Virus record (IMG/VR): IMGVR_UViG_3300022539_000516
DNA from: a virus
Length of the DNA stretch: 48,954 nt
Direction: 5' to 3' (one strand)
The position numbers and the translations under genes were made by a program. The first letter of the stretch is position 1. The number at the start of each line of letters is the position of its first letter. The notes beneath the pieces are model-generated. The model ran no database searches. It saw only the letters and a list, made by a program, of their open reading frames with translations, and was not told the DNA's origin. Shown one piece after another: positions 5,912 to 42,676 of the stretch.

Positions 5912-7258
5912 ATGAATAGAACAAAACATAAGCGTCCTAGGTCAATTTTTATCAATTGGAAAGATGAAATAGAGGATAAGGATTTTGTTCCTGGTTCAAA
6001 AGAAACAGAAGAATTTGTTCGTAAATTGTGGAGAGACGAAGCTTTATCTATGGAAGAAAAAAATATATTAATGGAATTGATTCAAGACAAGATAGAAGAG
6101 GCTGGTGGGTATAGAGAATCCGAAGAAAATCCTTTGGTTGACAGAGAATTTCTTGAAGAGTATAGAGAGGGATTGGCGAGGAGACCGCTTTCTACAATTC
6201 ATCCTTATCCACAGGAATTATTGGATGAAGAAGGTGAACCTATGAGTGAAGAAGATAAATTGAGAAGAATTAAAAGGAGAAAATACAAAGAAAACACAAT
6301 TTACATAGGTTATCCCAAGCGACGCAGGAAAAAGAAGAAGATAAGAAAAACTAGAACCACAAGACCTGCAAGAAAACCTATTCCAAAAAGAACAATTTCA
6401 AGAGAAGGGATGGTATCAGGGAAAAGGGGTAGACGTCCCTGGTGGTATTTAAAACCTCCTGTTTATGTAACGACCAAAAGAGATGAAAAGGTATGGGAGA
6501 AAGCATGTCGTAGAGCATCACAGGGTGGTAAAGAACCTTCTTATGGCGGTGTTACTCAAATATATAAGACATATTTAGCAAGAGCTGGAAGACCATATGT
6601 GAGTAAGTCAGTAGCAAACATAGAGGGGGAGGAAATGATTTTTGGATGTTTAAATTGTGAACATACCTTTAAACATAGCGCTGGTAGGGATGTTAAGTGT
6701 CCTGAATGTGGAAGTTATGAAACTAATGCGTGGAAGGAAGCAAGTGAGAACATAGAGGGGACAGAAATGGACGACTTTTTAGATATAGCAGACTATATGG
6801 TGCATGAATGTTCTATTGAACCAGATAATGTGAGCGATGAAGAAATAAAAGATGCTTTGAGCACTTTCGGTTTAGCTGAGTCGAAAGAGAATATAGTAAA
6901 GGTTCGAGAAATACTCTTGAACGTTTTATCCGAAGAAGATTCTATAGATAGAGAACGCAAAAGTTTAACTAAAGAAGAGTTTGAGGAAATGCAGGAACAC
7001 CCCCAAGCTGAAGAAAATCGTCTTATTGCAGTGCCTGCCGGGTTGATGTTTCAGAAAGCATACGGGTGGACAAAAACAAAGGTGAAATCGTGGCTTAAAG
7101 GAGAAGGATTGAGAGTTCCAAAGAATACTGAAATACAGAGCATAAAGATTAACAACAGATTGTTTTTTAAAGTAAAATTAAAGGAAGTCTCGAAAGATGT
7201 TTCTTATGCCCAGAAACATTTAGGCGAAGGAGTGTGGGCATTTTATGCGAAGACGTAG
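5912..7258 (+). CDS. Modular hypothetical protein (Asn-motif-delimited polyprotein-like; includes a zinc ribbon)
   Basis: EENP, KENT, ANIEGEEM, ENIEGTEM and EENR junctions; CxxC..CPECGS ribbon; the last module resembles the C-terminal module of 18229..20151. Confidence 0.6.
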   Translation: MNRTKHKRPRSIFINWKDEIEDKDFVPGSKETEEFVRKLWRDEALSMEEKNILMELIQDKIEEAGGYRESEENPLVDREFLEEYREGLARRPLSTIHPYPQELLDEEGEPMSEEDKLRRIKRRKYKENTIYIGYPKRRRKKKKIRKTRTTRPARKPIPKRTISREGMVSGKRGRRPWWYLKPPVYVTTKRDEKVWEKACRRASQGGKEPSYGGVTQIYKTYLARAGRPYVSKSVANIEGEEMIFGCLNCEHTFKHSAGRDVKCPECGSYETNAWKEASENIEGTEMDDFLDIADYMVHECSIEPDNVSDEEIKDALSTFGLAESKENIVKVREILLNVLSEEDSIDRERKSLTKEEFEEMQEHPQAEENRLIAVPAGLMFQKAYGWTKTKVKSWLKGEGLRVPKNTEIQSIKINNRLFFKVKLKEVSKDVSYAQKHLGEGVWAFYAKT

Positions 7259-7703
7259 GTATTTGCGCAATCAGGATGATTTAGAAGAAGAAGAAAAATC
7301 TATTCCAGAAGAAGACCTGGAAAAAGAGTTAACAGATGAAGAACAAGAAGATTTAAGAGTAATTATTGAAGCTGCTAAAAAATATCCTGACGTAGATGAA
7401 CCATCGAAAAAAGAGCTTGAAGTAATATCAACAGCATTAGAAAGAGAGTCGGTTCATGTTCCTGGAATTTTAGAGCCATTTGATTATGGAGAATTTGATG
7501 TAACATACGAAAGTATTCCATGGGATGAAGTAATGGTATTTGATGAAGAATTTCCAAGAATAACACTTAACCAACTAAGAAAAGAATTTAAAGATTACTC
7601 ACCTGGATGGTATTTGGTATCTGAGACAGAAAAGGCATATGGTTCTTTTGAAAATTTTGATGATGCAGTAAATTTTGCAAAAACTATTATAGCTGACCTA
7701 TGA
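7245..7703 (+). CDS. Acidic hypothetical protein with basic N-terminal leader MRRRRYLRN
   Basis: ORF track; the leader ends in Asn like the junction motif. Confidence 0.6.
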   Translation: MRRRRYLRNQDDLEEEEKSIPEEDLEKELTDEEQEDLRVIIEAAKKYPDVDEPSKKELEVISTALERESVHVPGILEPFDYGEFDVTYESIPWDEVMVFDEEFPRITLNQLRKEFKDYSPGWYLVSETEKAYGSFENFDDAVNFAKTIIADL

Positions 7704-8407
7704 TACCACATAAAGTTTTAGGTGTAGAATATGACGCTTCTCCAGAAGAAATTAAGAAAGCATATTATAAATTAGCACATAAATATCATCCAGACCATGC
7801 TCCTAAGAATAAGCAAGAAGAATATAAAGATAAATTTATAGAAGTTAAAAATGCATATGATTTAATCAAAGATAAGAAATATGAGCATTCAATTATTGAT
7901 TTAATAGAAAGAACAAGAGATAGATATGATTTTGAAAGATATGAATATACAGACATTGAGTATAGCGAAAATGATGTAATTTACAGAATGATTTTATCAA
8001 AAGATGAGTGGATTAATGGAACATCACGAATCATAGAATACAAAAGATATGCTAAATGTCGTGTGTGCAAAGGAAAAGCTACAAAAGATAATATTTGGGA
8101 AGCATGCCCTGTTTGTCGAGGATTTGGTGCACTGAGGATAAATTTCGGATTTTTCTCATTTATTGCAGGTGAATATGTAATAAGGTGTAAGACTTGTGAT
8201 GGAAGAGGAAGAAAGCCGTTACATAAATGTCTTGATTGTTTTGGGTCTGGAAGGGCAATAGAAACAGCTAGAATAAAAGTTGATGTACCTTCAGAATGGA
8301 ATTTTGAAGATTTAATAATAATTGATAAGTGTGGTCATTATGATATTAAAAGAGAAAGAAGGAAACATACAACTGGGGATTTAATAATAGAAGTGTATAG
8401 AGAATAA
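7700..8407 (+). CDS. DnaJ-like co-chaperone (J domain plus CxxCxGxG zinc finger)
   Basis: VLGV..ASPEEIKKAYYKLAHKYHPD; four CxxCxGxG-type repeats; lacks a G/F linker and is shorter than bacterial DnaJ. Confidence 0.88.
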   Translation: MIPHKVLGVEYDASPEEIKKAYYKLAHKYHPDHAPKNKQEEYKDKFIEVKNAYDLIKDKKYEHSIIDLIERTRDRYDFERYEYTDIEYSENDVIYRMILSKDEWINGTSRIIEYKRYAKCRVCKGKATKDNIWEACPVCRGFGALRINFGFFSFIAGEYVIRCKTCDGRGRKPLHKCLDCFGSGRAIETARIKVDVPSEWNFEDLIIIDKCGHYDIKRERRKHTTGDLIIEVYRE

Positions 8408-8424
8408 ATGAGGAGAAAAATGAT

Positions 8425-13045: not shown

Positions 13046-13867
13046 ATGTCAAAATTAAGAGTTGTGTATAAAGGAGTAACTGGTCAACTTGATTCTGATT
13101 TAGAAGAAATAGTAGGCGAAGAATATAATTATGGTTATACTAATGTAGTAATTGGTCAGAGAGAATTAGAATGGCATTATATTAGTTCTAATATAGCAAA
13201 AGAAGCAAAGAAAGAAATTAAGAGTAGATTTCCTTATATTATAGTTAAAATACTACCTGATGTTAAAAACAATCCTAAAAGATGTGAAGGATTAATAGAT
13301 AAAATGTTTAGAACAGTACAGATGAAAGGATATATATCTGATGCATTATCTGTTGCTGAAGAATTAAAAACTCCAGTTAGAGATAAATGTGATAATTGTG
13401 ATAAGCTAATAATGAGATATACACCAAGACCTATTTTTGGATTGTTTTGCAGTGAAAAATGTTCTCAAGAAAAAAGATTAGAAGATTCAATGGAATTAAA
13501 AGAAACAAGGGAAGCAATTAAAAGAGCAAAAGGAAAAGAAAACCCAAGCCCAAGGAGGTTTGAAATGTATAGAGAGCGTCCGGGATATTATAGAAGAAGT
13601 AGATTTAATCCTGCTCCAAAGAAGCTGACAAATGCTGAAATAGTAAAAAGATGGAAGATGTTTGTTTTAGATATGATAGCATGGTATGAAGACATAGGTA
13701 CAGTTGAGATTATAGATAAAGATAGATTTGAGAAATCTCTTCTTAGATTTATATTGGGGCCAGAAGGAGTACAGGAACTTGGTACAGATTGGTTAAGAGG
13801 GAGTAGACAAATAGAAGACCATCCCAGAAAATGGGGAGCAAGGTTTAAAGAAGGTTATGGAGGATGA
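13046..13867 (+). CDS. Modular hypothetical protein (NP-delimited)
   Basis: KNNP, KENP and RFNP junctions; CxxC..FCSEKC zinc motif; modules shared with 18229 and 29482. Confidence 0.65.
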   Translation: MSKLRVVYKGVTGQLDSDLEEIVGEEYNYGYTNVVIGQRELEWHYISSNIAKEAKKEIKSRFPYIIVKILPDVKNNPKRCEGLIDKMFRTVQMKGYISDALSVAEELKTPVRDKCDNCDKLIMRYTPRPIFGLFCSEKCSQEKRLEDSMELKETREAIKRAKGKENPSPRRFEMYRERPGYYRRSRFNPAPKKLTNAEIVKRWKMFVLDMIAWYEDIGTVEIIDKDRFEKSLLRFILGPEGVQELGTDWLRGSRQIEDHPRKWGARFKEGYGG

Positions 13868-13932: not shown

Positions 13933-14244
13933 ATGAAAAATCCACGCAGAGGTAGCAAAAAGCCTTTTTCTGACCGGCCGCATTATATAAAGGAAGAAAT
14001 TGAGAAGGCTATCAAAGAAGTTTCGTCTTTTGACGAACTCACTGACGAATATGCTGAGTTTGATACACAGATTAGAATAATGGGAGATTTAACAACTTCA
14101 TTCAGTATAGCAAAGTCAATAGTAGCTTCATTTAAAAAGTTGGGGGTGAAGTATAGAATAGGAGCGATGAAATTAGAGAGAGATAAGAAGAATAGAATTG
14201 GAGATTGGTTGTTGGATAAAGTAAGAATTTATATACATTTTTAA
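13933..14244 (+). CDS. Hypothetical protein starting MKNP
   Basis: ORF with AAGGAG RBS. Confidence 0.6.
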   Translation: MKNPRRGSKKPFSDRPHYIKEEIEKAIKEVSSFDELTDEYAEFDTQIRIMGDLTTSFSIAKSIVASFKKLGVKYRIGAMKLERDKKNRIGDWLLDKVRIYIHF

Positions 14245-14789: not shown

Positions 14790-15188
14790 TTGAAACTCAA
14801 AAAAGGTTCATCAGTTTGTTCCTTAGATGCAATATTCAACTACAAGCCTTTGTTGGAGAGAGCAACGGAGGAAGAATTATATAGAATACTGGCCTGTCTT
14901 GCTTTAATGAAAAAAAATGCAGAGTTAAAAAACTTTGTAGAGTTTGATGTTATAATACAAAAGGTAGAGAAAAAAGGGTGGAACAAAATAGTATTAGATA
15001 GAACTGTTGAGTACTGGAAGAAAAAAGGAAGAAAAGAAATTATAGCTTTTCTTGATTATATGAGCAGAGGTTGTTGCAACGCCGGTGTAGATAATTTTAT
15101 AAGTCATTTTTGTAAACATTATGAACAGGAAATTAAAAAGACTCAGAAAAAGAAGGGGAAAAAGAAAGGAGAGTATGAGCTATTATGA
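14790..15188 (+). CDS. Hypothetical protein
   Basis: TTG start with AAGGAG RBS. Confidence 0.5.
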   Translation: MKLKKGSSVCSLDAIFNYKPLLERATEEELYRILACLALMKKNAELKNFVEFDVIIQKVEKKGWNKIVLDRTVEYWKKKGRKEIIAFLDYMSRGCCNAGVDNFISHFCKHYEQEIKKTQKKKGKKKGEYELL

Positions 15189-16636
15189 AAGAGTATAATA
15201 TTGGTGATATAGTTAAATTAAAAGTAGATTTAGATAGAAGAGTTTATGAAGCAAAAAAAGATTCCAAAGGAATACATAGAGGTTCTAAAAAAATACAAAT
15301 TCCTAAAGGAACAATAGGAATTATCTACAAAAAATATAGAATTAGAGCAAGAAATGGAACAGCGTACAGATTAAAAGATTCAAATGACGTAGGTATGGGA
15401 ACTATAATAACTGACTATGAATTAGAATCTGTGGTTGACGAAGGTGTAATTTATTGGTGGAAAAAAGGTGTTTATGGACAAAACCCCGACTTCCACAAAT
15501 TTATTTCAAGAGTACCTCATCATCTTGAACGAGCAGAGAGAGGATTAAGAACAGCTCAGAAAAGATTGCCTGAGTATCAAAAGAGAGCGGAAAGAATAGC
15601 TAAATATGGTAGGGGTATATTAAAAGAAGTCAAAGGGGTTGTTCCAAAAAAATATATAAAGAATCCTGGCAGTATATCTGAAGTCTTGCAGACTCTTAGA
15701 AAAGAAGTTGTAGAGAAAGGGCGAAAGACAAACGATGAGAGAAAAATAGGAGAAATTTTAGATATGGATATTCTGCATAATTTTTCTCCTGTACTTTTTG
15801 CACAAGCTTGGAAAGATAAAAAATGTCAGTACAGATATTATGTTGCTCTTGGAATGTGGTTAAATCAAGCAATAAATGGGATATTTGACGATGACATTGA
15901 TATGCTTATTGAGATGGCAAAAAATTATCTGGCAGAAATAGCAGAAATATTACCATTAAGAGAAAAAGTTAGTCAGGATATTCTGGAAAAAGAATTTGGA
16001 GTAGAAAATCCTAGAGAGGTAATTAACTATGCTAGATTCAAAAGATGGATAATGAATAAAAGTGTATGGGAAAGAAATATTGTTGATAATCCATATCTAA
16101 ATAGAATTTATAATATAATGTTGCAGTCAACCGGATTTGGTGTTCTTAGAAGAAGAATTACCAGAAGATTTACAGATTCTCAAAGATATATTGAAGAACT
16201 TGAAAATTTAAAATCTCAATTTAAGAGGTATAAGGGGAATCCAGTAAAATCAAAAGCAGTCATAGAATGGAAAAAGAAAAAATCTAAGTTCGGTAAAATT
16301 ACAGAAGAAATGAGAGAACATTATCGCCATCAAGGATTTGATATAGACTCTGATTATAGGGAAGAAGTATATAGAGAAGACCATACCATATATTTTAAAT
16401 TATGGGATACAATCATTATTACAGCAACTCCAGAGGTTATAACAATAAATACTCATGGATATAGAAGTAAAACTACAAAACAGAGAATTAATAAATACCT
16501 GAGAGAACTTGATACCAAATGGCAGATTTCGCAGATGAGAGACCAATGGTATTTATGGGATACGATAGAAAATTATAAGGAAAAATTTCTTGATGGTATC
16601 GGAATTGACAGAGAAACCGACGAAATTATTTACTAA
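15185..16636 (+). CDS. Modular hypothetical protein (NP-delimited; N-terminal KOW/SH3-like module)
   Basis: GQNP, IKNP, VENP and KGNP junctions; YNIGDIVKL..IPKGTIGII; last module has INTHGYRSKTTKQRIN. Confidence 0.65.
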   Translation: MKEYNIGDIVKLKVDLDRRVYEAKKDSKGIHRGSKKIQIPKGTIGIIYKKYRIRARNGTAYRLKDSNDVGMGTIITDYELESVVDEGVIYWWKKGVYGQNPDFHKFISRVPHHLERAERGLRTAQKRLPEYQKRAERIAKYGRGILKEVKGVVPKKYIKNPGSISEVLQTLRKEVVEKGRKTNDERKIGEILDMDILHNFSPVLFAQAWKDKKCQYRYYVALGMWLNQAINGIFDDDIDMLIEMAKNYLAEIAEILPLREKVSQDILEKEFGVENPREVINYARFKRWIMNKSVWERNIVDNPYLNRIYNIMLQSTGFGVLRRRITRRFTDSQRYIEELENLKSQFKRYKGNPVKSKAVIEWKKKKSKFGKITEEMREHYRHQGFDIDSDYREEVYREDHTIYFKLWDTIIITATPEVITINTHGYRSKTTKQRINKYLRELDTKWQISQMRDQWYLWDTIENYKEKFLDGIGIDRETDEIIY

Positions 16637-27132: not shown

Positions 27133-28212
27133 ATGATGAGAAGATGTAGAGCGAATAGATTTGCAACAACAAAAGATAGACTGTATGAGTGTCAAGAGTG
27201 TGGCAAACAAGAGGTACACAGGACGAATCATACAGGACAGACATATCCTCACTGTGGTTATTGTAATAAAACGACTACATGGGAATATATCAGGGACATC
27301 GATTGGGATAAGGATAAAGGTATTTATTCCCAATTATCGCCGGGGTCTGTTTCAAGGAAAATAAAATTTTACAGGAAGACTAACTCCAGAAGAAATCCTA
27401 CAAGATGGATTACAGATACAACTGGAGAAGTAGTCTGTGCTGTATGTGGAAGACCTAAAAGAGGTAGAACAAAATGCTGTCGAGTTGCGCCTTCCGTGTC
27501 TTTTGAAAGGTTTGTTGAAAGATATTTTCCCGGAGCACAGATGAATGACCCGGAGGATGAAAATTATGTATCAGGAGCAACAGCTAGAGAATTCTATGAA
27601 GATTATAGATTAAGCAATTGTAGAAGTTTATCGGAATATATAAAAGAGACGCAGACTACTCTACCATCGGATATAGATGAAATAGATTCAGATATAGCAG
27701 AAGAAGAGGAAAGAAAAATTAAGAAATTACATAGGAGATTAGAAGGTGAAGGAGTCGAGTTTGTTGAAAGAAATCCAAGATGTAGATACAGAAGAAATGC
27801 AAAAAAAGGAGAAGAACAACGGTTTGCAGAATGGTGGAATAAGGCATCATTCGATGATAGGTTGGATGTTTTTAGAATAGCTTGTCCATCAAAACCGTCG
27901 TCATATGTTGTAGAAGATTGGTCTAATTTGCCTGTATTAATTAGAACTAAATTGATAACGATAAGGATGAGGTCTAAAGAAAATCCTTGTTATTCAAGAA
28001 GAAATATAACAGAAGAAGATATAAGACGACATTGTGGGACAGGTCGTATGAATCCAGAAATGGAGTTTATTCAGGTAGATAAATGGGGTAAGATATTAGC
28101 TGAATATACTTTTGAGCAATTATACGATTATCAAAAAGAAAAATATGCAGATATGGAGATAGATGAAGAAAGAAAATTTACCGGGACAACATTTCTTCAA
28201 AGAGTAAAATAA
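27133..28212 (+). CDS. Modular polyprotein-like protein with zinc-ribbon modules
   Basis: Leader MMRRCRAN; RRNP, ERNPRCRYRRN, KENPCYSRRN and RMNP junctions; CxxC pairs. Confidence 0.7.
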   Translation: MMRRCRANRFATTKDRLYECQECGKQEVHRTNHTGQTYPHCGYCNKTTTWEYIRDIDWDKDKGIYSQLSPGSVSRKIKFYRKTNSRRNPTRWITDTTGEVVCAVCGRPKRGRTKCCRVAPSVSFERFVERYFPGAQMNDPEDENYVSGATAREFYEDYRLSNCRSLSEYIKETQTTLPSDIDEIDSDIAEEEERKIKKLHRRLEGEGVEFVERNPRCRYRRNAKKGEEQRFAEWWNKASFDDRLDVFRIACPSKPSSYVVEDWSNLPVLIRTKLITIRMRSKENPCYSRRNITEEDIRRHCGTGRMNPEMEFIQVDKWGKILAEYTFEQLYDYQKEKYADMEIDEERKFTGTTFLQRVK

Positions 28213-30142: not shown

Positions 30143-30850
30143 ATGGGTTGGGGACTCAGAAGAGTAGCAATAGATGAAGTGCTTGCCAACGAAGTAGCGC
30201 AAGCAGACCCACCAACTTTCGCAGACTGGGATTATAACAGAGAGTATGATTTAGGTGCGGAAGAACTTCCGTGGTGGGCAGGATTGGTAGGAATAGGACA
30301 ATGGGGAAGAACACCCAGACGAAGACGTGCTGTGATGCCAGTAGACCCGGAGACTTTTGCGGAGGTTGGACAAGTAGACCCACCAACTTTTGCGGGATTT
30401 AGATTCCCTAAAGTAATACCAAGAATGCCTAGAGGAGTACCAGGCGGAAGATTGCCTGGGGGAATAATAGTAAGACCACCTCGAATGCCAAGGATACCTG
30501 CAAAGATGATATTGAGCACAAGATATTCCATAATCGCTAATGTGCGGGATACTATGATTGATAAATTCGAGAAATATCTTCTAAAGGGTGGCGGAAGGAT
30601 AATGATGTTCAATGATGTCGGAACAGGATATGAAGTCGGCGCATATAATGTTACTCCGGCGATTTTGAATATTTTTAAGAGAGCTGGAATTCCTGTAAAA
30701 ATAGTATTCAAGTATTCAGTTCCTATTAAACCGAAGATGAGAATTGGAGTTCCTAGAAAACCAGTACAAGAAAGAGTTTATGGTGGTTCTAGTTGGCGAG
30801 CACCTGTTGCACGTGTACAAAGAGCATACGCAAGAGCAATCACTAGATAA
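30143..30850 (+). CDS. Putative virion protein with acidic GxG-bearing N-terminus and basic Pro/Arg-rich C-terminus
   Basis: AGGAGG RBS; GIGQWG; duplicated EVxQxDPPTFA. Confidence 0.5.
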   Translation: MGWGLRRVAIDEVLANEVAQADPPTFADWDYNREYDLGAEELPWWAGLVGIGQWGRTPRRRRAVMPVDPETFAEVGQVDPPTFAGFRFPKVIPRMPRGVPGGRLPGGIIVRPPRMPRIPAKMILSTRYSIIANVRDTMIDKFEKYLLKGGGRIMMFNDVGTGYEVGAYNVTPAILNIFKRAGIPVKIVFKYSVPIKPKMRIGVPRKPVQERVYGGSSWRAPVARVQRAYARAITR

Positions 30851-31766
30851 TCTCTTTTATCTTTTTTAGTATGTCTGGCATTCTTGCTTCAGCGTAGACT
30901 TCGGTGGTAGTAACCGATGCATGTCCTAAAAGTTTCTGTATATATTGTATTTGAACGCCTTTAGATACAAGGTCAGTTGCGAAGGTATGCCTTAGTCTAT
31001 GGAGAGTAAAATCAACGCCTGAATCTTCACGCAACTTTTTTGCCAACTTAACAAGCCATGAAATCTTGTTTACTTTAGCTCTGGTGGGGAATACATAGTC
31101 GTTATTGGATAACATGCCAATATATTTTTTCAATTCATTTTGGGCAGATTTGGAAGTGATGAATGTGATTCTTTCTTTGTTACCTTTTCCTTTAACTAAT
31201 AATTGCAAAACATTGTCAACTGTAGTAAAATCTTTTTTCCGAACTTCAAGTACCTCACTTGCTCGGAGACCACCATATAGCATTAAAAGTATAGCTATGC
31301 GGAACTTTGGTTCAACTTCTGTAGCTAAAATTGTAACTACATCTTTTTCTTCTAAGTATCTTGGGTGTCTTTTGGGAACTTTGAAGAAATATTTTCGTTT
31401 TACTTCAAGAAAAGGATTTTCAGCTTCTTTGCGGTTTTCGTAGTAAGAAAGAAATGACCTGACAGCACATATTATTTGGTTTAATGTAGCTGGAGATAAA
31501 TTGTCCTCTCGTTCTTTACGGGTTAGAAAATCTCTGAATTTCCAGATATCTTCAAGTTTTAGTGTTTTCCAGTTGTAATACTTTCCTTCTGGATGGATAT
31601 GTTTGATAAAATAAACAAAATAAGTTCTGAGTCTACTTCTATAGTTTTGTTGTGTATTTAAATTAGGAATATCATTGATGAAGGTATCTACTTTTAGTTC
31701 AAGTTCTGTGGGTTCTTCTTTCTTTTCTTCTGGTGGATTGTCTGAAATCTTTCTAAGTTTAAACAT
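30843..31766 (-). CDS. Tyrosine recombinase/integrase (XerC/D-like)
   Basis: SAM-like N-domain (LSPATLNQIICAVRSF); catalytic set GLRASE, KGKGNKER, HRLRHTFAT, LLGH and TTEVY. Confidence 0.93.
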   Translation of the reverse strand: MFKLRKISDNPPEEKKEEPTELELKVDTFINDIPNLNTQQNYRSRLRTYFVYFIKHIHPEGKYYNWKTLKLEDIWKFRDFLTRKEREDNLSPATLNQIICAVRSFLSYYENRKEAENPFLEVKRKYFFKVPKRHPRYLEEKDVVTILATEVEPKFRIAILLMLYGGLRASEVLEVRKKDFTTVDNVLQLLVKGKGNKERITFITSKSAQNELKKYIGMLSNNDYVFPTRAKVNKISWLVKLAKKLREDSGVDFTLHRLRHTFATDLVSKGVQIQYIQKLLGHASVTTTEVYAEARMPDILKKIKEII

Positions 31767-32251: not shown

Positions 32252-33808
32252 ATGAACCTCTACGCCTTTGATTGCGACGGTACTCTTGAACACGGTGGAG
32301 GACCGATAGGATTAAGAACTCTAAAGAGATTAGAGAAACAGGGACATATTGTTGTAATTGTTTCTGACTCTCTGAGCTGTAAGTGTTTGTGGAATACTGT
32401 TTTTCCATATATATCAGGCGCAGAGGAAGGATTAAGTAGAACTAAATCTAGAAAGAGAGCATTATTGAGAACAAAAAAAGAATACGAAGATTGTGATAGG
32501 TATATCTATGTTAGTGATGACCCCGGAGACCATAAGATAGCTGATAAGACAGGGTATGAATATATACATCCGGATGATTTTGCAAGACAGAATCCTAGGA
32601 GAAATATAGAAAAGAAAGAAAAAGAAATAATACAATCATATATAAAAAGATGGACAGAATATATTTCTTATGAAGACGTATTCGAATCATCAACAGAACA
32701 TGGATTTTATGGTTTCATTGATAAATATGGCAAACTATTATGGAGAAAGCGTGAACATGGAGATTTTATACGAGGACTTCTTCGTAAAATTTTAGATAAA
32801 GAACATGTAGATTATGCAGACTTGCCTGAGTTATATGAAGTATTCTTTAGAAAAACTAAACTTATAAGAGCAGATTTTATACCAGGAGAAGAATTTGATA
32901 TATCAATATGGGGCAAAATAAATATAAATCAAATTAAGACTATTGTAAAATTTGCCGATGCATGTAATAAATTCTATTTTGATATATTTTTGCAATCTGA
33001 AAATGTAAGCGTAGGAGGTGAAGGTTTTTATAAGTTTATAGATAAAATGAGAAAATATGATTTGATACCCAGAACATTTGTATTGAGAAATCCTAGGAGA
33101 AATAATAGCAATAAAAGAAAAATCTTAGCTATTGCCAGAAGAGTAAAGACTCTTCTTAGAAAGACTGATAAGTTTGTTGATTGTATAGTAATATCTGAGA
33201 CTCTGACATATTATTTACGAAAGGCTGGTTTTAACGCCAAAACAATAGAAGGTTGTTTTATAACGGATTATTTGCCAATAAAGTATAAAAAAATAGCGCA
33301 AAGTTATAGAAAAAGATTTAAAAGAAAACCATGTTATTTATATAAAAATGACCATTGGTGGGTAGAAGTTGATGGAGATATAATTGATTTAGACGCAAAA
33401 CAATTTGATTTATTAATGAAAGTAAAAGCTAAGAGTATTGAGTATCCAGCTAATCCTGAACATTATGGAACATTGAAGAGATATACTAAACTTGATGGGA
33501 ATTATAATTATGTAATTAAAGAAAACCCAAGGAGGAATAAAATGAGACACAGAAGAAATGTAAAATTTGAGGTTAAACGGGACGAAAAAGGAACATGGGG
33601 AATATGGGACTACGAAATAGATGGTTGGTATACGAATAGAATACCTACCAGAGAACAAGCAGAAATAGAGAAGAAAAAAATTATTGCGGAAACAGTAGTA
33701 TGGGAAGGTGTGCGTGATAGATTTGATGCCTTTACAGAGGAACTCGTTGATGAATTTGGGGTTTCAATGTCAGAGATATTACAAATAATTAAAGAAGTGA
33801 TGCCATAA
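32252..33808 (+). CDS. Four-module polyprotein-like protein: HAD-like hydrolase, repeated GxIxxxG domain, transglutaminase/papain-like Cys-His-Asp module, small module
   Basis: FDCDGTL (HAD motif I); QNPRRN, RNPRRN and ENPRRNKMRHRRN junctions; DCIVISETL..HWWVEVDGDIIDL..QF. Confidence 0.75.
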   Translation: MNLYAFDCDGTLEHGGGPIGLRTLKRLEKQGHIVVIVSDSLSCKCLWNTVFPYISGAEEGLSRTKSRKRALLRTKKEYEDCDRYIYVSDDPGDHKIADKTGYEYIHPDDFARQNPRRNIEKKEKEIIQSYIKRWTEYISYEDVFESSTEHGFYGFIDKYGKLLWRKREHGDFIRGLLRKILDKEHVDYADLPELYEVFFRKTKLIRADFIPGEEFDISIWGKININQIKTIVKFADACNKFYFDIFLQSENVSVGGEGFYKFIDKMRKYDLIPRTFVLRNPRRNNSNKRKILAIARRVKTLLRKTDKFVDCIVISETLTYYLRKAGFNAKTIEGCFITDYLPIKYKKIAQSYRKRFKRKPCYLYKNDHWWVEVDGDIIDLDAKQFDLLMKVKAKSIEYPANPEHYGTLKRYTKLDGNYNYVIKENPRRNKMRHRRNVKFEVKRDEKGTWGIWDYEIDGWYTNRIPTREQAEIEKKKIIAETVVWEGVRDRFDAFTEELVDEFGVSMSEILQIIKEVMP

Positions 33809-33818
33809 AGAATTAAAT

Positions 33819-34754
33819 ATGCAAAATTCAACAATATACAAAACATTCAACTTTGCACTCAATCTTGTTGAGGAACAAGGTTTTCCTATAAGCAACTACT
33901 ATTTACCTGAAAATAAAGTTGGAAAGTTTAGCATTAAACACAGATGGTATAAAAAGGAGGAAATTTTAGATGTTGTTAATATGAAAATGGCTATATTAAC
34001 AGGAGCAAAACCGTCAAAAGTAAAACTTGATAAAGACTGGATGGCACTTAATCTTTTTAAGGATAAACAGGGATTATTGATGTCGACTCACCCTGTTGAG
34101 ACATTTACTCATTTATATCCAATATATGAATCTTGGGGAGATGTTCTTGTTGGAGGATTAGGATTGGGATACATTGTTAATGAGATGGCTAAGAATGGTT
34201 CAGTAGATTCAATAGTAGTTATTGAAAAAGAGAAAGATATTATTAAATTAGTAGAAGATGGATTAATGAATAGTATAGATGATATAAACGATGATATGTT
34301 TAATGATAGAGACGACGAGGTAGAAGTAACTATAATACATGATGATATATTTAATTTTGTCAAAAGAACTAAGATGAAATTCGATTTTATGTACTTTGAT
34401 ATATGGTATGAAACAGAACAAGAGGATTTTTATGATTATGTTCTTCCTTTGAGGATGTTATCAAGAAGATTGTTAACTCATGGAGATAGTATAAATGTAC
34501 GAAAATATAATATTATATGTTGGATGGAAGAAATAATGAGAGGAGTATTATTGATACATACAGTAGCTACAAAAATGATGAACGAATTAAGTAATAAGTA
34601 CAATGCCGTTTTGAAAGCTGGTAGATTTACTAAAAAATATCATAGACTTTTTATTGATTTTGTTGACGAATATGGATTAGAAGAATTAGAAGATATGTCA
34701 GCAGAAGAATATCAAAAATTAGCTAATGAGTTTGTGTTGAATTATAAGGTGTAA
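33819..34754 (+). CDS. SAM-dependent methyltransferase, spermidine-synthase-like fold
   Basis: GDVLVGGLGLGY, VVIEKEKD, IHDDIF and FDFMYFDIW motifs. Confidence 0.75.
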   Translation: MQNSTIYKTFNFALNLVEEQGFPISNYYLPENKVGKFSIKHRWYKKEEILDVVNMKMAILTGAKPSKVKLDKDWMALNLFKDKQGLLMSTHPVETFTHLYPIYESWGDVLVGGLGLGYIVNEMAKNGSVDSIVVIEKEKDIIKLVEDGLMNSIDDINDDMFNDRDDEVEVTIIHDDIFNFVKRTKMKFDFMYFDIWYETEQEDFYDYVLPLRMLSRRLLTHGDSINVRKYNIICWMEEIMRGVLLIHTVATKMMNELSNKYNAVLKAGRFTKKYHRLFIDFVDEYGLEELEDMSAEEYQKLANEFVLNYKV

Positions 34755-34755
34755 A

Positions 34756-36315
34756 ATGGAGCGCAAAAAGAATTTTAAGTATTCACCACGTGAAGTTGAA
34801 AGTGCTTTGTATGGTTGTTGGGACGAAGTATTTACTATATATTCTCCAGAGCCAATAGATATTGCTTTAAAAAGGCATTTGTATTTTTCCGGTTGGATTA
34901 ATTTAGATGGTACATTATTAAGCAGTAAAGGAGAACATTCAGAAGGATTAAAATGTATACTTAGGGAACTTGGAGAAAAAGAGCAAAATGAATTTTATAT
35001 GTATGGTGACAATATAATAGATTTGTTCATGCAAGTGACTGGAATTATTAGAATGAAGTGGGATGAAAAAGATGATGTATCAAGAGTTTTGATGAGCATA
35101 GAAAATAAAATTACAAAAGAACAATGGTATACAATTAGAAGAATATATAAAGATTTTGATGAGTTTAATTATGAAATAAGTTATATCAATAAATCGGGTT
35201 GGGGGAGTAATTTGTGGAAACTAAAAGCATTTTTGGAGAAATATGATATGATAATAGATTCTAGCAAACAAAACCCAAGGAGGAATAAAATGAGACATAG
35301 GATAAATCCGAGAGTAAAGGATAAAATGAGCAAAAAAGAGATAAAGGCATTAAAGGACGTATGGGAGACATTTAGAGATACTGGTGAGAAAATGGCAATA
35401 AGAAATAAAACTGAATATTTGCGAAACTATAAAAGTTTAGAACGGAAGAAACTTGTGACTGTATATCAATGGCAATATACGTGGAGTATTGGATTAACAG
35501 AGAAAGGAAAAGAAATTGGTGATATATTATTTTTGTACTCTAATACGAGTAAAAATCTACAAAACCCAAGGAGGAATAAAATGAGACATAGAAGAACGAT
35601 AGGCAATCCTACCAGGACTGAAAAGTATTATAGTATTATTAGAGAAGAAGGAGAAAGAATGATTATACAACCTCCTCTTCGAGAAGATGGTTTTCATATG
35701 TTAGTTAATGAAAAGTCCAGTATAGCATACTCAACAGGAGACAAACGTGACCTGATTGCTGATATGCAAGACCTTGTTGATAATCGTGGATGGGAATGGG
35801 AAAGTAGAGGTAGAAAGAGGAGAAATGTGCAAAAGGTTTCCATCAAGACTGCCCGGAATGAGTATGAAGAACCTCTTGAGCCGGACGAAGAAGATGTTAT
35901 CATCAGCTATACAGATGAAATATTTAGTGGGTCTGAGTATATAGGTAAAGCTAGTGATTGGGAAATCCAGGTTAAGTTGATTCAGGAGTGGATGAAAGGA
36001 GAAGGTTTTTATCCCAACGTGTGGCAGCTAAGTGACCATGGGAATTATCATCTAATTAGAGACTTTCCGCATCCGGAAAGTAGAGGTGGAAGATATAAGA
36101 GAAATCCTTCCAGAACAACAGAAAAATCTTTGCGTGAGTGGGTTCAACATTTAGCAGACTCAGGTGTAAATATTACAATAGAATGGGCTTATGGACAACC
36201 CAGATGTTATAGTAAAGAAGGTCGTGGGCTGAAAGAATTATCTCCACGACTTCCAACTGGACAGATGGCAATATGGCTTGACGGGTTTACGAAAGGGTTA
36301 AATGTAGCAGAATAA
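34756..36315 (+). CDS. Five-module polyprotein-like protein
   Basis: Leader MERKKN; two NPRRNKMRHR junctions, then KRRN and KRNP; first module is the repeated GWIxxDG domain; second is winged-helix-like. Confidence 0.72.
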   Translation: MERKKNFKYSPREVESALYGCWDEVFTIYSPEPIDIALKRHLYFSGWINLDGTLLSSKGEHSEGLKCILRELGEKEQNEFYMYGDNIIDLFMQVTGIIRMKWDEKDDVSRVLMSIENKITKEQWYTIRRIYKDFDEFNYEISYINKSGWGSNLWKLKAFLEKYDMIIDSSKQNPRRNKMRHRINPRVKDKMSKKEIKALKDVWETFRDTGEKMAIRNKTEYLRNYKSLERKKLVTVYQWQYTWSIGLTEKGKEIGDILFLYSNTSKNLQNPRRNKMRHRRTIGNPTRTEKYYSIIREEGERMIIQPPLREDGFHMLVNEKSSIAYSTGDKRDLIADMQDLVDNRGWEWESRGRKRRNVQKVSIKTARNEYEEPLEPDEEDVIISYTDEIFSGSEYIGKASDWEIQVKLIQEWMKGEGFYPNVWQLSDHGNYHLIRDFPHPESRGGRYKRNPSRTTEKSLREWVQHLADSGVNITIEWAYGQPRCYSKEGRGLKELSPRLPTGQMAIWLDGFTKGLNVAE

Positions 36316-36321
36316 ACAGGT

Positions 36322-37926
36322 ATGAATAGAAAAATTATAGATGCAGAAAAATATATGAAGTCGGAGTTGGGTGAAGCCGATGGAATAGATGGTATGTTTT
36401 TTCTCTCCCCAAGCGGTAAACTTTTTAATGTTGGAGGATTTCATTGGCCTTATGCTAGAGAAATTGTAATATGGCTTGAGAAACAGGGTCATAAATTTAA
36501 AACAGAAAGTAAGGCACTTAAATTAGAGTCAGCTTCTTCGATAGCAAGAAAGGCACATGGCAGAAAAAAAGTTGATAGGGATAGATTAGATATAATTTTT
36601 TCTGAAGAATTAAATATGATAAGGATTTATAGTTCTTCTAGAAGTGAATTTGATATAGAAATAGCTTCAACGATAACTAGAAAACAATTTGATACTATAA
36701 AACGTCTTGTAAATGCTGGTTTTAATAGAACAAATTTGTATTATGATATATATTTAAGAAGAAAATCTACGGACGATTATAGAGACAGAAGTGGAACTGG
36801 GTTTTTAAATTTCGTAAAAGCATGTAATAGTTTAGAATTAGTTGATGGTGGAGTAATGGTAAGAGCAAATCCAAGGAGGTATAAAATGAAACATAGAAGA
36901 GTAATAAATAATCCTGATAAGACTGATAAATATTATAGTATTGTTAGACGTAGAGGAGAAAGAATTATTTTACGTAAGAAAAAACAGTCCATTTATGTAT
37001 TATATAGTGAAGGACATGATAAAAATTTCTGGATGGGGTCTAAAGATACAATGATTGCACGTATGCAAAAATATGTAGATGAATCAAAATGGAGATGGGA
37101 AAATAAAGGTTCATCTTGTTTTGTCAAAGTACAGGATAAAAAAATGGAAAAGTTTAGGGCGCAAGCATGGGTGCATCCTGAATATAGTGATGATTATATG
37201 GTGAACTTTACTATAGAAGCAGAAAATTATGAAGAAGCCGCAATTATAGTGCGAGACTGGTTAAAAGAGCAAAAATCTCAAATGTTAAATGATTTTAGAA
37301 TAGAAAAAGGAACATGGGAAGAAATTGAAGATACTGGAATTGATTATGAACAAAACCCAAGGAGGAATAAAATGAGACAAAAAAGGCATGCAAAATGTAT
37401 AGGTTGTGGAAAACTTGCGGTTATACCGAAAGACAAGACAAAACCTTATGGTTGGATAATAACGCAGGATATGGGTCACGACCCCGACTATCGTTGCGAT
37501 AAATGTAAAAAGAGATGGCAAAAAGGTGAAAGAAAACTATCGAAACAAGAGGTATCTGAATTAAAGTTAATTCAACATAAAATGAGACACAGAAGAAATA
37601 CAGGAGATATAAAAAAATTACTAGATATAGGTATGAATATAATTGATACAATGTTTTCTATTCTTAATAAAACAAGTGAAGAATTGATAAAAGTAGGTAT
37701 TAATCGGGCAGAATTTAGTATTCCATCTTTTGAGGACTTATATGATTCACATTATATACAACCAGAGGATTTGACAGTAGAAGAATGGGATAGAATATCA
37801 GATGAAGAGATAGAGGATGTAGGAAAAAGATTATGCAATTACGCGAAAGAAAAAGCAGAGGAACTACGGTTTACCATAAAGGAAGGTTATTCTTATCCTT
37901 ACATTAATATTTATTATTCAATTTAA
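36322..37926 (+). CDS. Multi-module polyprotein-like protein
   Basis: ANPRRYKMKHRR, QNPRRNKMRQ and KMRHRRN junctions; first module is the repeated domain; one CxxC..CxxC module. Confidence 0.72.
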   Translation: MNRKIIDAEKYMKSELGEADGIDGMFFLSPSGKLFNVGGFHWPYAREIVIWLEKQGHKFKTESKALKLESASSIARKAHGRKKVDRDRLDIIFSEELNMIRIYSSSRSEFDIEIASTITRKQFDTIKRLVNAGFNRTNLYYDIYLRRKSTDDYRDRSGTGFLNFVKACNSLELVDGGVMVRANPRRYKMKHRRVINNPDKTDKYYSIVRRRGERIILRKKKQSIYVLYSEGHDKNFWMGSKDTMIARMQKYVDESKWRWENKGSSCFVKVQDKKMEKFRAQAWVHPEYSDDYMVNFTIEAENYEEAAIIVRDWLKEQKSQMLNDFRIEKGTWEEIEDTGIDYEQNPRRNKMRQKRHAKCIGCGKLAVIPKDKTKPYGWIITQDMGHDPDYRCDKCKKRWQKGERKLSKQEVSELKLIQHKMRHRRNTGDIKKLLDIGMNIIDTMFSILNKTSEELIKVGINRAEFSIPSFEDLYDSHYIQPEDLTVEEWDRISDEEIEDVGKRLCNYAKEKAEELRFTIKEGYSYPYINIYYSI

Positions 37927-38565: not shown

Positions 38566-38630
38566 ATTCCGGCGAGAGGATTTGAGTACTTGTTTTAGAT
38601 ACAGAAACAAACAAAAGGGGGAGATAGATT

Positions 38631-39160: not shown

Positions 39161-39161
39161 T

Positions 39162-40084: not shown

Positions 40085-40103
40085 AGGGGTTTAAGGACAA
40101 ATA

Positions 40104-40580: not shown

Positions 40581-40954
40581 AGCTAAAAATAGATAAAAGA
40601 ATAAAGCGACCTCCATTTTGTTTTGACAAAACTAACAAAGTTATATATTCAACGTATGATAAAGAAGATTTTGATAAAGGTTGGAGTTTTTTCTGCTACG
40701 GAAAACTATCGAAACTACATGTATTTAGGGAAAGAAAAGTAGAACATAGAAATGATATGTGTCATTGTTATTATACTCCGCTGAAGGGAATGATTAAATT
40801 TTATATTAATATAGAAGATATATTGGGAGAAACTCAAGCTGGTATTGCTGTAATAAATAGATTGTCAAGACCTCATTGTCCAGAATGTGGAGAGGATATG
40901 TATAAAATAGTGAAATATGAGTGTCCAAGGTGTATATTAAACAAGGAGGGATAA
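40571..40954 (+). CDS. Cys-rich hypothetical protein
   Basis: C-terminal CPECG..CPRC. Confidence 0.55.
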   Translation: MGMKLKIDKRIKRPPFCFDKTNKVIYSTYDKEDFDKGWSFFCYGKLSKLHVFRERKVEHRNDMCHCYYTPLKGMIKFYINIEDILGETQAGIAVINRLSRPHCPECGEDMYKIVKYECPRCILNKEG

Positions 40955-40955
40955 A

Positions 40956-41222
40956 ATGTCTTCTATATACATATGGACTAAAGGTGATAGAAGTGTTGGT
41001 ATACGGCCTGGGAAAGCAAAGCTAGAAACCGACTTTAGAGACTTTGAAGATTTTGACGAAGAAACCCGTGAAGATATTAAAAACAGATTAGGAAAGCTTA
41101 TAGAAGATATGTATGATGATGTAATAGATGTAATATATTTTGACGACGAATGTCCCAACTGTGGAGATAGATTAAACAAAAAAGGAATATGTAGAAAATG
41201 TGAAGCATATACGCATCGATAA
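40956..41222 (+). CDS. Hypothetical protein with C-terminal zinc ribbon
   Basis: GDRSVGI; CPNCG..CRKC; AGGAGG RBS. Confidence 0.6.
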   Translation: MSSIYIWTKGDRSVGIRPGKAKLETDFRDFEDFDEETREDIKNRLGKLIEDMYDDVIDVIYFDDECPNCGDRLNKKGICRKCEAYTHR

Positions 41223-41233
41223 GGTATAAATTA

Positions 41234-42676
41234 ATGATAAAAGGTTTAAGAAAGAATCCCGACAAGACTGTACGTAAATTTATTACTACAATGTATCGGA
41301 TAGGTGAACCAGAGGATTGGAACGAGAAATTCTTTGTAGCGACAGAAGGCAGTATTGACGGGTGGATACGTTACTTGGTTAGTACTGTTGAAAATCAGTG
41401 GGATTTACTTGACGAAAAGGTGTATAAGTTAACAGTTTCAAAGTTCTATTTACCGTTTACTAATATTTCAGTAAAGAGTGTTGGTGAGTTACAAAAAAGA
41501 TATGATAGAGGAGAAATATCTGATGAAGATATTAGAGGAGTATATCCTGAAGAAACTGGACTACAACATCTAGAACAATATGAGGTAATACCAGAAGATA
41601 TAGTTTCTAAACATGAGTTATCTAGAAAAGAAATAGAGAGTTTTGCGGAAGGAAAAAAATCAAGAAAGAATCCTGCAACAAAATCTATTGTCAAACAAGC
41701 CGAAGAACTTCTATATGAAAAATATGGCGGGACAAAATTGAGAGATGTATATAATGCTGCTTGGATAGCTCCTAGCGGTAAATTATTAGGAAATTTAGCA
41801 GACCACTATGATTCTGCTTATGAAGTTTTGAAAGATTTAGGAATATATGCGGATGAGGAAGAGAAAGACCTTTTTAATTTTTTAAGACTGGGTTTTATTC
41901 GTTTTAACCTTACTGGGATTGAATTAGATATAGAAATTAGAAGTAAAATAACACAGAAACAATTCAAAAAAATTGAGGAAATAGTAAGATATGACAAAAT
42001 ATATGGTGAATTTTATTTCGATATTACCATGCCAGAATTAGAGTTATTTATAGATGGTAAAGGATATGAAAATTTTTTGAAGGTAATAGATAAATATAAT
42101 TTGGTAAAAGCTTCAAGAAAGAATCCCATAGTCAAAACATCAATATCCTTTAAAACTTTTCAGAGATTGAATCCTAAAAAAGAATTGATTGAAAGAGCTG
42201 TAGATTATTTTGGTATTACTGAATCTGGTAGAGCAGCAGGATTTATACTGGATGATGGTAGACTGTTAGATTTCAGTGGATACAAACAGGGGTTTGGTGT
42301 TAGAACAAAAAGACATTTTGTCCACGACCGCATTACTATTGTAATGGAAACAAAAGATAAAATGATTAGTAATAACGTAAAGCTTGCGTTTTTTCAATGG
42401 CAGACAGGTGCATTGAGACTACTTTTGGATGTGTATGCATCCGATTTGGCTATATCCATTGAATTTCCACAGGAGATAACAGGTTATCAAATATTAAGAG
42501 TAAGGAATTTAGTTAGAGCATATGGAATAAATTTAGTGTTAGATGTATTTTCTAGAGATTTACAGCCTGGAGAACAGATGTTACTTTATAAAATATTGGA
42601 AGACCCTACGGATAAAGAGATTAATGAACTGTTTCAAAAATATTTTGAGTACAAAAAAGATATAATGGGAGATTAA
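41234..42676 (+). CDS. Three-module polyprotein-like protein (three RKNP junctions)
   Basis: aagaaagaatcc precedes each module; modules 2 and 3 carry AAWIAPSGKLL and AGFILDDGRLLDFSG. Confidence 0.72.
   Translation: MIKGLRKNPDKTVRKFITTMYRIGEPEDWNEKFFVATEGSIDGWIRYLVSTVENQWDLLDEKVYKLTVSKFYLPFTNISVKSVGELQKRYDRGEISDEDIRGVYPEETGLQHLEQYEVIPEDIVSKHELSRKEIESFAEGKKSRKNPATKSIVKQAEELLYEKYGGTKLRDVYNAAWIAPSGKLLGNLADHYDSAYEVLKDLGIYADEEEKDLFNFLRLGFIRFNLTGIELDIEIRSKITQKQFKKIEEIVRYDKIYGEFYFDITMPELELFIDGKGYENFLKVIDKYNLVKASRKNPIVKTSISFKTFQRLNPKKELIERAVDYFGITESGRAAGFILDDGRLLDFSGYKQGFGVRTKRHFVHDRITIVMETKDKMISNNVKLAFFQWQTGALRLLLDVYASDLAISIEFPQEITGYQILRVRNLVRAYGINLVLDVFSRDLQPGEQMLLYKILEDPTDKEINELFQKYFEYKKDIMGD

Follow-up and report, generated by a model that had tools for sequence, protein, structure and literature searches.

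Modular genes and their seams

The window, the whole 48,954-nucleotide (49-kb) stretch of DNA covered by this reading, comes from an uncultured marine-sediment phage; Shine-Dalgarno-led gene starts and domains directed at peptidoglycan (SLT, VanY-like) indicate that its host is a bacterium. About nine of its multi-part proteins are made of swappable modules linked via a short basic peptide that ends in Asn-Pro (NP) or Arg-Arg-Asn (RRN), and we use "seam" for the position of this peptide. The proteins are 270–640 aa long, are basic (pI about 9–9.6) and have three to eight modules each, mostly unrelated to one another.

The four-module ORF at 32252–33808 (+ strand, as are all modular ORFs described here) encodes a HAD-like module, module A, a transglutaminase-like Cys-His-Asp module (33098–33523, + strand) and a C-terminal module, with seam Asn codons at 32591, 33089 and 33524; this bears out the layout given in a preliminary description of this DNA, where a HAD-like domain, a second domain and a Cys-His-Asp domain are each followed by a seam. 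The ORF at 34756–36315 has five modules, A, B, C, D and E, and seams at 35272, 35563, 35824 (of the RRN type) and 36103, and the ORF at 36322–37926 has seams at 36868, 37354 and 37597, the last being a leader word without a Shine-Dalgarno sequence. Three modules, two of them copies of module A, make up the ORF at 41234–42676 (seams 41255, 41669 and 42122), and eight make up the one at 18229–20151 (seams 18478, 18721, 18922, 19117, 19360, 19618 and 19849, with an RRN at 19141). The ORF at 15185–16636 has conserved seams at 15482, 15662, 16007 and 16238 and a non-conserved NP at 16088, the ORF at 13046–13867 has seams at 13271, 13541 and 13607, and the ORF at 27133–28212 has seams at 27394, 27772, 27982 and 28051; recognisable conservation of the last ORF in a sister contig is confined to 31 residues around 27982–28051. 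Finally, the ORF at 3–860 encodes a very basic repeat protein with a hydrophobic C-terminal part, and three NPs (297, 336 and 390) lie between these two parts. Two other genes are relevant below: a small stand-alone gene (13933–14244, + strand) that starts M-K-N-P, a leader kept in the sister contig, and an Xer-like tyrosine recombinase gene on the minus strand (30843–31766), which is divergent from, and lies just upstream of, the 32252–37926 array.

The seam motif

In composition-preserving shuffles within each of the 63 + strand ORFs, NP is expected 22.3 times (shuffle maximum 41) and is observed 62 times. The excess is greater for the longer forms, [RK]xNP (26 observed, 3.3 expected), [RK][RKE]NP (15 versus 0.9) and RRN (15 versus 2.4), for which shuffled counts never came near those observed, and in the same shuffles RRD, RRE and RRS are rarer than expected. 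The broader form in which the preliminary description wrote the motif, [RKE][RKE]N, exceeds expectation only slightly (42 versus 33.3), so that the claim stands for the narrower forms only. Similarly, of the twelve motif-bearing genes listed there, the nine at 3–860, 13046, 15185, 18229, 27133, 32252, 34756, 36322 and 41234 concentrate the motif, and ORFs 5912 (one NP), 23390 (one NP) and 29482 (no NP) show no enrichment, which makes the list overstated. No [RK]xNP or RRN site occurs in the methyltransferases, exonuclease or SPASM enzyme, in agreement with the statement that enzyme genes do not appear to be punctuated in this way. The motif was also said to lead stand-alone genes, and here the claim went too far: only 4 of 62 window ORFs have NP within their first 20 residues, no excess over the overall NP rate, and among these four one is a membrane-anchor start and the sister contig lacks the NP of another, ORF 20154.

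The seam signal belongs to the protein level, since AATCC is in the N-P frame in 50 of 59 occurrences, is not over-represented as a DNA word, and the codons used for seam N and P are genome-like. Aligned seams give the logo [RK]-[S/Y/V/G]-[RK]-[RKEQ]-N-P, in which positions -2 and -4 are basic and -3 is non-basic, a specificity beyond NP alone, and S-R-[RK]-N-P recurs across non-homologous proteins with differing codons.

Junction cassettes with in-frame start signals

Six seams have the in-frame reading NP-RR-x-K-M, for which the DNA supplies AAGGAGG, a 6-nt spacer and ATG. The first copy of this junction cassette, Q/E-N-P-R-R-N-K-M-R-H-R-R-N, is at 33519–33566, and further copies with the in-frame Shine-Dalgarno sequence and ATG are at 35267–35314, 35558–35605, 36863–36910 (a variant) and 37349–37396, all on the + strand; ORF 13046 has an in-frame Shine-Dalgarno sequence and ATG at 13565. 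A 28-nt core is identical across four copies, and the Shine-Dalgarno sequence, spacing and ATG are those of the normal gene starts of this phage. The Arg codons of the tail are AGG in ten of ten cases, versus 17% genome-wide. Deep in-frame sites with a strong Shine-Dalgarno sequence and ATG number seven in the modular ORFs and zero in 10,289 residues of other ORFs. The cassettes are unstructured, folding (as single-stranded DNA) no better than shuffles do (z +0.7 to +1.1), so each of the six seams has what a nested gene should have, a canonical Shine-Dalgarno sequence at proper spacing and an in-frame ATG in unstructured sequence. The text of the preliminary description does not mention these cassettes.

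These six seams are gene boundaries that are read through in frame: the Arg codons of a C-terminal tail Q-N-P-R-R-N-K double as the Shine-Dalgarno sequence of the next module, and the ATG opens a short basic leader (M-R-H-R-R-N, or M-Y-R...N-P). Ribosomes may start at the internal cassette ATGs, giving modules both fused and free, and the identical 28-nt core may serve as a patch for homologous shuffling. Most seams, about 25 of 40, lack an ATG, and we limit the gene-boundary origin to the cassette seams. At these simple seams the peptide alone is conserved and the codons vary, which suggests that the peptide itself is functional. That it is recognised by a trans-acting factor, through processing or docking, is a serious possibility, if one that falls short of an even chance, and it may, less probably, be a passive hinge.

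Comparison with a sister phage

The comparison set is three sister contigs (about 24 kb) from one other sample, taken as one sister phage. The 82 internal HSP endpoints, which are non-independent and come from this one small sister sample, lie a median of 5 residues from a seam Asn, with 66% within 10 residues, where random positions give 20% (maximum 37%). Differences at seams involve entire modules, through insertion, deletion or a change of order: ORF 18229 and P0002 differ by module indels at seams, ORF 15185 and P0106 by an extra block of roughly 70 residues between two NPs, and the modules of ORF 34756 stand in altered order in L007. The NP is kept at 25 of 27 aligned sites (23 by script and 2 re-scored by hand as gap artefacts), whereas the fraction kept is 0.67 among other N residues and 0.80 among other P residues, and where Pro is lost the Asn is retained, in R-R-N or R-H-N forms.

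On the sister contigs the cassette DNA word is found at genuine boundaries, where one gene stops and another starts. L007 has a gene that ends just past N-P-R-R and overlaps, through ATGA, the next gene, which starts M-R-H; a further L007 gene, with the start M-R-H-R-R-N, follows a stop and this Shine-Dalgarno word. L008 has stand-alone genes with M-Y-R-R-H...N-P leaders that match the internal Met of the ORF 13046 seam. Together with the in-frame start cassettes, these boundaries mean that the modular "polyproteins" are in part chains of fused genes, with internal starts that are probable. L7_3 keeps R-R-N with AGA AGA codons, so that the constraint on the protein persists where the Shine-Dalgarno sequence does not. 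We note that coverage of the sister contigs is 3x, and assembly errors could therefore account for single-base frame differences at cassettes, as also for an apparent frameshift at 2789–2883 of L007.

Module A

The one confident structure model is that of module A. The AF2 model of this module with both its seams has a pLDDT of 89, with core residues 11–150 above 90; the seams, at residues 7–8 and 158–159, are in coil, and the 10-residue blocks there average 54 and 76. Both seams are thus modelled outside the folded core. The first helix begins five residues past the NP, which is therefore not its cap. Stand-alone homologues were found for modules A, D and E. In module A homologues outside this lineage the seam motif was not found, so it is unnecessary for the module A fold. 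Homology breakpoints, sister indels, stand-alone homologues and this model all agree with the preliminary claim that the motif bounds autonomous modules.

Relation to known systems

Polyvalent proteins of phages and conjugative elements (Iyer, Burroughs, Anand, de Souza and Aravind 2017; PMC5512222) likewise string together, within a mobile element, effector-type domains that are unrelated and shuffled, and this analogy, already drawn in the preliminary description, fits in that the module A profile matches giant proteins of up to 5108 aa that also contain ART-PolyVal (PF18760), ParB_N and GNAT domains. The phage proteins differ in being shorter, in that neither a zincin-like MPTase nor another hub peptidase was found in them, and in having a constant seam peptide and start cassettes in frame, neither of which PMC5512222 describes ("linker" occurs there 0 times). 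Among the asparagine peptide lyases (MEROPS N6 and N7), FlhB/YscU (N6) self-cleaves between the N and P of NPTH and reovirus mu1 (N7) cuts itself at Asn-42 (PMC3207474); the Asn-Pro bond of N6 and the invariant Asn are shared with the seams, but those sites lie in the folded catalytic context of one conserved domain, whereas the seams are in flexible, low-confidence coil between unrelated modules. Unlike integron cassettes, the phage array is without an attC hairpin and without an IntI-type integrase.

Head maturation proteases cut at short motifs, L/I-x-E for T4 gp21 and S/A/G-x-E for phiKZ gp175, and the adenovirus protease also acts on a shared motif. As in those systems, many unrelated proteins, a basic core-like one among them, share one short motif at N-terminal leaders and at positions within the chain; the phage differs in that its motif is Asn-Pro, no protease was found and few stand-alone genes carry the motif. 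In-frame nested genes with internal starts are known in lambda (C/Nu3), T7 (gene 4A/4B) and phiX174 (A/A*), and there, as here, a strong in-frame Shine-Dalgarno sequence and ATG lie inside a longer ORF and a shorter product with the same C-terminus is expected, but the phage site is a repeated cassette, present at several seams per ORF and interchangeable with stop/start boundaries in the sister phage. In the modular evolution of lambdoid phages, mosaic joints fall at conserved boundary sequences, which are short words between units; the seams are also short conserved words at unit boundaries, but these are internal to ORFs and translated, with conservation at peptide level too.

What the seams may do

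We think it probable that the basic-x-Asn-Pro/Arg-Arg-Asn signal is a portable module seam in lineage-specific, polyvalent-type, mix-and-match phage proteins. That the motif reflects chance or the composition of basic, Asn-rich proteins might be thought from their high pI and the slight excess of the motif as first written, but this reading, refuted by the within-ORF shuffles and contradicted also by frame specificity, conservation and the coincidence of breakpoints, can practically be dismissed. Integron- or shufflon-like sites used by the adjacent tyrosine recombinase are scarcely more credible: the gene is suitably placed, beside an array with direct repeats, but it is generic Xer-like (78.9 bits versus an integron-integrase cut-off of 265), the cassette DNA has no hairpin and folds worse than its shuffles, and most seams have only 5–6 nt in common. 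Self-cleavage at Asn-Pro via asparagine cyclisation would use the invariant seam residue and a chemistry established in FlhB/YscU; we hold it to be very improbable, since the known cases need a folded catalytic environment and the seams, in flexible coil flanked by unrelated modules, have no shared catalytic setting, and R-R-N seams without Pro also occur. Ribosome skipping of the 2A type (D-[VI]-E-x-N-P-G-P, on eukaryotic ribosomes) was considered and rejected, since only seam 19849 reads E-x-N-P-G-P, its sister copies read E-N-P-G-P and S-N-P-G-P, and the host indicated is bacterial.

Two further readings bear on the peptide. In one the seam is a passive hinge or cap that nothing recognises, in which Asn-Pro interrupts whatever secondary structure precedes it, the basic residues make for a soluble spacer, and the seam travels with its module because only seam-to-seam pieces survive shuffling. 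The position of seams in coil outside the core, their tolerance of insertions and the absence of the motif from outside homologues of module A are in its favour, but it leaves unexplained the basic/non-basic pattern at -4 to -1, the keeping of Asn over Pro and the persistence of the peptide at the termini of separate genes, and in module A the NP is too far from the first helix to cap it; we consider it possible, at well below even chances. In the other, proposed in the preliminary description, the seam is recognised and cut by an Asn-directed maturation protease and/or serves as a tag for virion loading, freeing many small effector modules as T4 gp21, phiKZ gp175 and the adenovirus protease do with head or core proteins. 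Consistent with this, the specificity beyond NP recurs across proteins without homology and in differing codons, sites that lose Pro still have Asn, the autonomous modules of many candidate substrates have the short motif in common at exposed coil, the tail and leader peptides are still present where sister genes are separate, at termini for which a hinge is useless, and the three NPs of the core-like ORF 3–860 separate its basic repeats from its hydrophobic part; moreover, the transglutaminase-like Cys-His-Asp module sits between seams, and processing of polyvalent proteins has been predicted (PMC5512222). Against it, no dedicated maturation protease of matching specificity was found within the 49-kb window, and zincin-like MPTase, assemblin-like and LonC peptidases have no Pfam match in any modular ORF. 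The sole protease-like fold seen, the transglutaminase-like module, is a weak assignment (Pfam E 0.16; TM 0.58–0.65 versus an Atlas model that is itself of low confidence), and L007 lacks it at the orthologous position. Stand-alone genes do not generally carry the motif, and Pro would follow the scissile bond, a position disfavoured by most endopeptidases. In addition, six seams carry their own start signal, which with the true gene boundaries in the sister phage would make free modules possible without any protease. Seams as cut sites or packaging tags, and the modular proteins as putative virion cargo, are thus possible but unsupported, protease or tag being in our estimate rather unlikely, and no result here supports a tailless virion.

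The portable-seam reading leaves room for a larger one, which we regard as doubtful: that the seams are sites of an Asn-directed processing or loading system that releases or packages small effector modules by the dozen in one group of prokaryotic viruses, which may be tailless and membrane-containing, with the start cassettes as a second, translational route to free modules. If true, this system would match those of T4 gp21 and the adenovirus protease as their counterpart, but its specificity would be new.

A basic Asn-Pro peptide in the modular ORFs

With each of the 63 + strand ORFs shuffled internally as the null, the dipeptide Asn-Pro (NP) is found 62 times where 22.3 occurrences are expected (shuffle maximum 41). 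The excess is also present when residues ahead of the Asn are specified: [RKEQ]NP occurs 33 times against 5.7 expected, [RK][RKE]NP 15 times against 0.9, and [RK]xNP 26 times in the window (3.3 expected) and 18 times on the sister contigs (2.1 expected). RRN is found 15 times (2.4 expected) and RRD, RRE and RRS are depleted, which points to a specific preference for Asn following Arg-Arg. As a logo, the site reads [RK]-[S/Y/V/G]-[RK]-[RKEQ]-N-P, and basic residues are under-represented at -3. We refer to this short basic peptide, ending in Asn-Pro ([RK]-x-N-P) or R-R-N, as a seam. Of 59 AATCC occurrences, 50 are in the N-P frame; AATCC is not over-represented as a DNA word, and the codons chosen for Asn and Pro in the motif resemble those of the genome as a whole. 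The frame bias indicates that the signal is read as protein, and a DNA-level motif is ruled out by it.

The basic-Asn-Pro or RRN signal of the preliminary description is thus present, but [RKE][RKE]N as written there occurs 42 times against 33.3 expected, and the motif is redefined here. Of its about twelve motif genes, nine hold up: enrichment is confined to the ORF at 3-860 and those starting at 13046, 15185, 18229, 27133, 32252, 34756, 36322 and 41234, and by shuffle counts there is none in ORFs 5912, 23390 and 29482. Its proposal that stand-alone genes begin with the motif as a leader is overstated, such leaders being rare: among 62 window ORFs, 4 have NP within the first 20 residues, which does not exceed what the overall frequency of NP would give. 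The enzyme genes are free of [RK]xNP and RRN sites, in line with the preliminary description; in the homing endonuclease plain NP occurs five times, in no case with basic context.

Genome context and relatives

The window appears to be the first part of a 134.5-kb contig from a marine-sediment metagenome; it is 33% GC, and all of the ORFs analysed as genes are on the + strand except the integrase. Strong AAGGAGG-type ribosome sites precede the ordinary gene starts. Recognisable genes encode an SLT transglycosylase, DnaJ, a VanY-like peptidase, methyltransferases, a SPASM enzyme, an ARPP-1 protein, an RNase T-like exonuclease, a LAGLIDADG-type endonuclease and a Xer-like tyrosine recombinase; the ORFs named by the preliminary description contain no significant Pfam family. 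The ARPP-1 domain protein (44200-45159, Pfam E 1e-28) belongs to a family linked with NAD/ADP-ribose conflict systems; the phage DnaJ (7700-8407) has a zinc-finger domain. GATC is strongly avoided across the window (1-48954; 2 occurrences against ~120 expected from trinucleotides), which points to evasion of a GATC-directed host restriction system. CGCG is also avoided (2 against 17 over 1-48954), and the remaining 4-nt palindromes are near expectation.

Scans of IMG/VR with o34756, o23390 (ORFs are named by their start positions) and the cassette word, the Shine-Dalgarno (SD) plus ATG sequence coded within some seams, gave no relatives; the four IMG/VR matches to the cassette word are ordinary ribosome sites ahead of an unrelated small gene. 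A scan of JGI metagenomes with the o23390 alignment likewise gave none. Among sequencing runs the window DNA is found in its probable source sample only, and no RNA run containing it is listed. Relatives were found in one other sample only, on contigs L001, L007 and L008, which we have taken to represent one sister phage.

Seams mark module boundaries

Repeats, alignment breakpoints, sister-contig module changes and stand-alone homologues agree that the seams mark module boundaries, as had been claimed from the first reading of the sequence. Module A, a unit of ~160 residues, is present in o32252 (32597-33088), o34756 (34774-35271), o36322 (36322-36867) and twice in o41234 (41675-42121 and 42128-42673), and the motif bounds every copy. 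The internal ends of local alignments among the window modular proteins and their relatives (n = 82, not mutually independent) lie a median of 5 residues from a seam Asn, and 66% of them are ≤10 residues from one, compared to 20% for random positions (maximum 37% in 2000 trials). Other genomes encode free-standing homologues of module A and of modules D and E of o34756, with ends that coincide with the seams.

An AF2 model of module A with both of its seams, built from a 60-sequence alignment (pLDDT 89, pTM 0.83), places the core at residues 11-150 and leaves the seams (residues 7-8 and 158-159) as coil outside it, where 10-residue blocks average pLDDT 54 and 76. A model of the whole of o32252 made without an alignment is unusable (pLDDT 45). 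Across alignments of orthologues, which are 71% identical overall, 25 of 27 NP sites are conserved (a script counted 23, and inspection showed two of its four "losses" to be gap artefacts), and conservation is 0.67 for other Asn and 0.80 for other Pro. One of the true losses retains the Asn (R-R-N-P to R-H-N-E).

The sister contigs differ from the window by whole modules inserted, deleted or moved, at seams. The o18229 orthologue has some modules that o18229 does not and lacks others, every breakpoint being an NP, and that of o15185 has an additional ~70-residue block flanked by two NP. Modules B, C and D of o34756 are spread over two genes in the sister phage, and the o13046 orthologue lacks module 1 and starts five residues ahead of the first seam. 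These comparisons show that modules are exchanged at seams, and overall the seams delimit modules, are conserved and specific to this lineage and, in the module modelled with confidence, are exposed.

We note that the orthologues o27133 and L1_9050 (L001 9050-10084) have in common only a 31-residue stretch (27982-28074 in the window), 74% identical and situated between two seams, that contains two Cys and one His; the modules flanking it have diverged past recognition or been replaced. At L007 2789-2883 an apparent frameshift, which may be an assembly error (coverage is 3.3x), divides a copy of module A between two called genes.

Identity of the modules

Module A belongs to a widespread ~140-residue domain family with 96 representatives at E ≤ 0.001, for which there is no Pfam model and no solved relative (the best Foldseek PDB match has E 0.05 and the best VIA-wide match Z 4.4); its fold matches in BFVD are uncharacterised phage proteins only. 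It occurs alone (~140 aa) and in giant proteins of up to 5108 aa together with ART-PolyVal, ParB_N and GNAT domains, which places these proteins within the polyvalent-protein theme (PMC5512222), an analogy already drawn in the preliminary description. The seam does not belong to module A itself, since 90+ homologues from other lineages lack it; in the giant homologues plain NP is raised ~2x, with inconsistent basic context.

The N-terminus of o32252 is weakly HAD-like, and its residues 283-424 have a weak likeness to transglutaminase-like or lasso-B-type folds (Pfam E 0.16; TM 0.58-0.65 against the Atlas's own low-confidence model). Pfam searches with single inter-seam segments gave sub-threshold hints only (Zn ribbon, ArdA, DdrB and YunG/Transglut_core). 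The structures nearest to the conserved C-terminal module of o18229 (19855-20148) are Preplasmiviricota-labelled clusters and a Mu I-like protein cluster (TM ~0.6), a comparison with a low-confidence Atlas model that offers only a possible lead to virus type or to a scaffold/protease link.

Some seams encode probable translation starts

Five copies of a cassette with an identical 28-nt core lie between 32252 and 37926, each coding AAGGAGG, six bases and ATG in frame, and a sixth SD + ATG seam is at 13541-13565. The signal is the same as that at the phage's ordinary gene starts, and the Arg codons of the tail are AGG in 10 of 10 cases, compared to 17% of Arg codons genome-wide. There are seven strong SD + ATG sequences deep within the modular ORFs and in frame, six of them at seams, and none in the remaining ORFs (10,289 residues); each of the two other frames of the modular ORFs has one. 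The seventh is off-seam, at 35659 within module C of o34756.

On L007, one gene ends just past N-P-R-R, and its stop overlaps the ATG of a gene beginning M-R-H; a second gene, beginning M-R-H-R-R-N, is preceded by a stop codon and the same SD word; and a third ORF ends eleven codons past the seam, where the window runs on into the transglutaminase-like module. L008 has small stand-alone genes with M-Y-R-R-H...N-P leaders, whose start corresponds to the internal Met of the o13046 seam. The SD + ATG word is thus a true stop/start boundary in these contigs as assembled (3x coverage), indicating that the window seams with this word are gene boundaries fused in frame. Judged by their sequence, six seams are in-frame gene boundaries, composed of tail, SD, ATG and leader, with intact start signals. 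Initiation at the internal ATGs would give free modules besides the fused chains, and the shared 28-nt core could allow homologous shuffling of modules.

The simple seams (about 25) have no ATG and varied codons, and one sister-contig copy of the cassette keeps R-R-N by AGA AGA codons, which form no SD. By these codon patterns, the seam peptide is also constrained independently of the SD.

Possible roles of the seam peptide

The peptide at simple seams may be recognised by a common factor; its sequence context is more specific than NP alone, the Asn is conserved in preference to the Pro, and the peptide is still present where genes are separate, at their ends, and also occurs in the basic core-like ORF 3-860, all of which favour such a factor. 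Cleavage at the seam and tagging by it, both proposed in the preliminary description, are possibilities only. Against cleavage, no protease was found in the 49-kb window, Pro would follow the presumed scissile bond, free modules could be reached by a protease-independent route, and a virion location of the proteins is conjectural. Self-cleavage at the Asn, of the FlhB or mu1 type (PMC3207474), is improbable, given that the seams are flexible and have unrelated modules on either side. An integron-like or attC reading was rejected, as the cassette DNA is unstructured and the recombinase is Xer-like.

The seam at 19849-19866 reads E-x-N-P-G-P, which is the core of eukaryotic 2A skipping peptides; in a bacterial virus this likeness is probably a coincidence. 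N-P-G-P-R-G-G stands at the start of a conserved module, at one place in the window and at two in a sister protein (L001 587-2956, residues 512 and 693).

Implications

Polyvalent or cargo proteins of phages and plasmids are thought to deliver many counter-defence activities at once. The modular proteins described here are of polyvalent type and have in addition a fixed seam peptide and dual-coded start cassettes; linkers are not mentioned in the polyvalent-protein paper (PMC5512222), and a literature search found no paper describing such a seam. This phage has a fixed, conserved seam peptide at every exchangeable unit, and its dual-coded seams would serve as both linker and translation start, with the same modules fused or in separate genes among close relatives. 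The locus thus keeps a natural record of genes fusing and splitting at a single defined word, and the seam provides a simple sequence rule by which viral proteins of unknown function may be divided into functional units. Should the seam prove to be a processing signal, its maturation specificity would be a new one.
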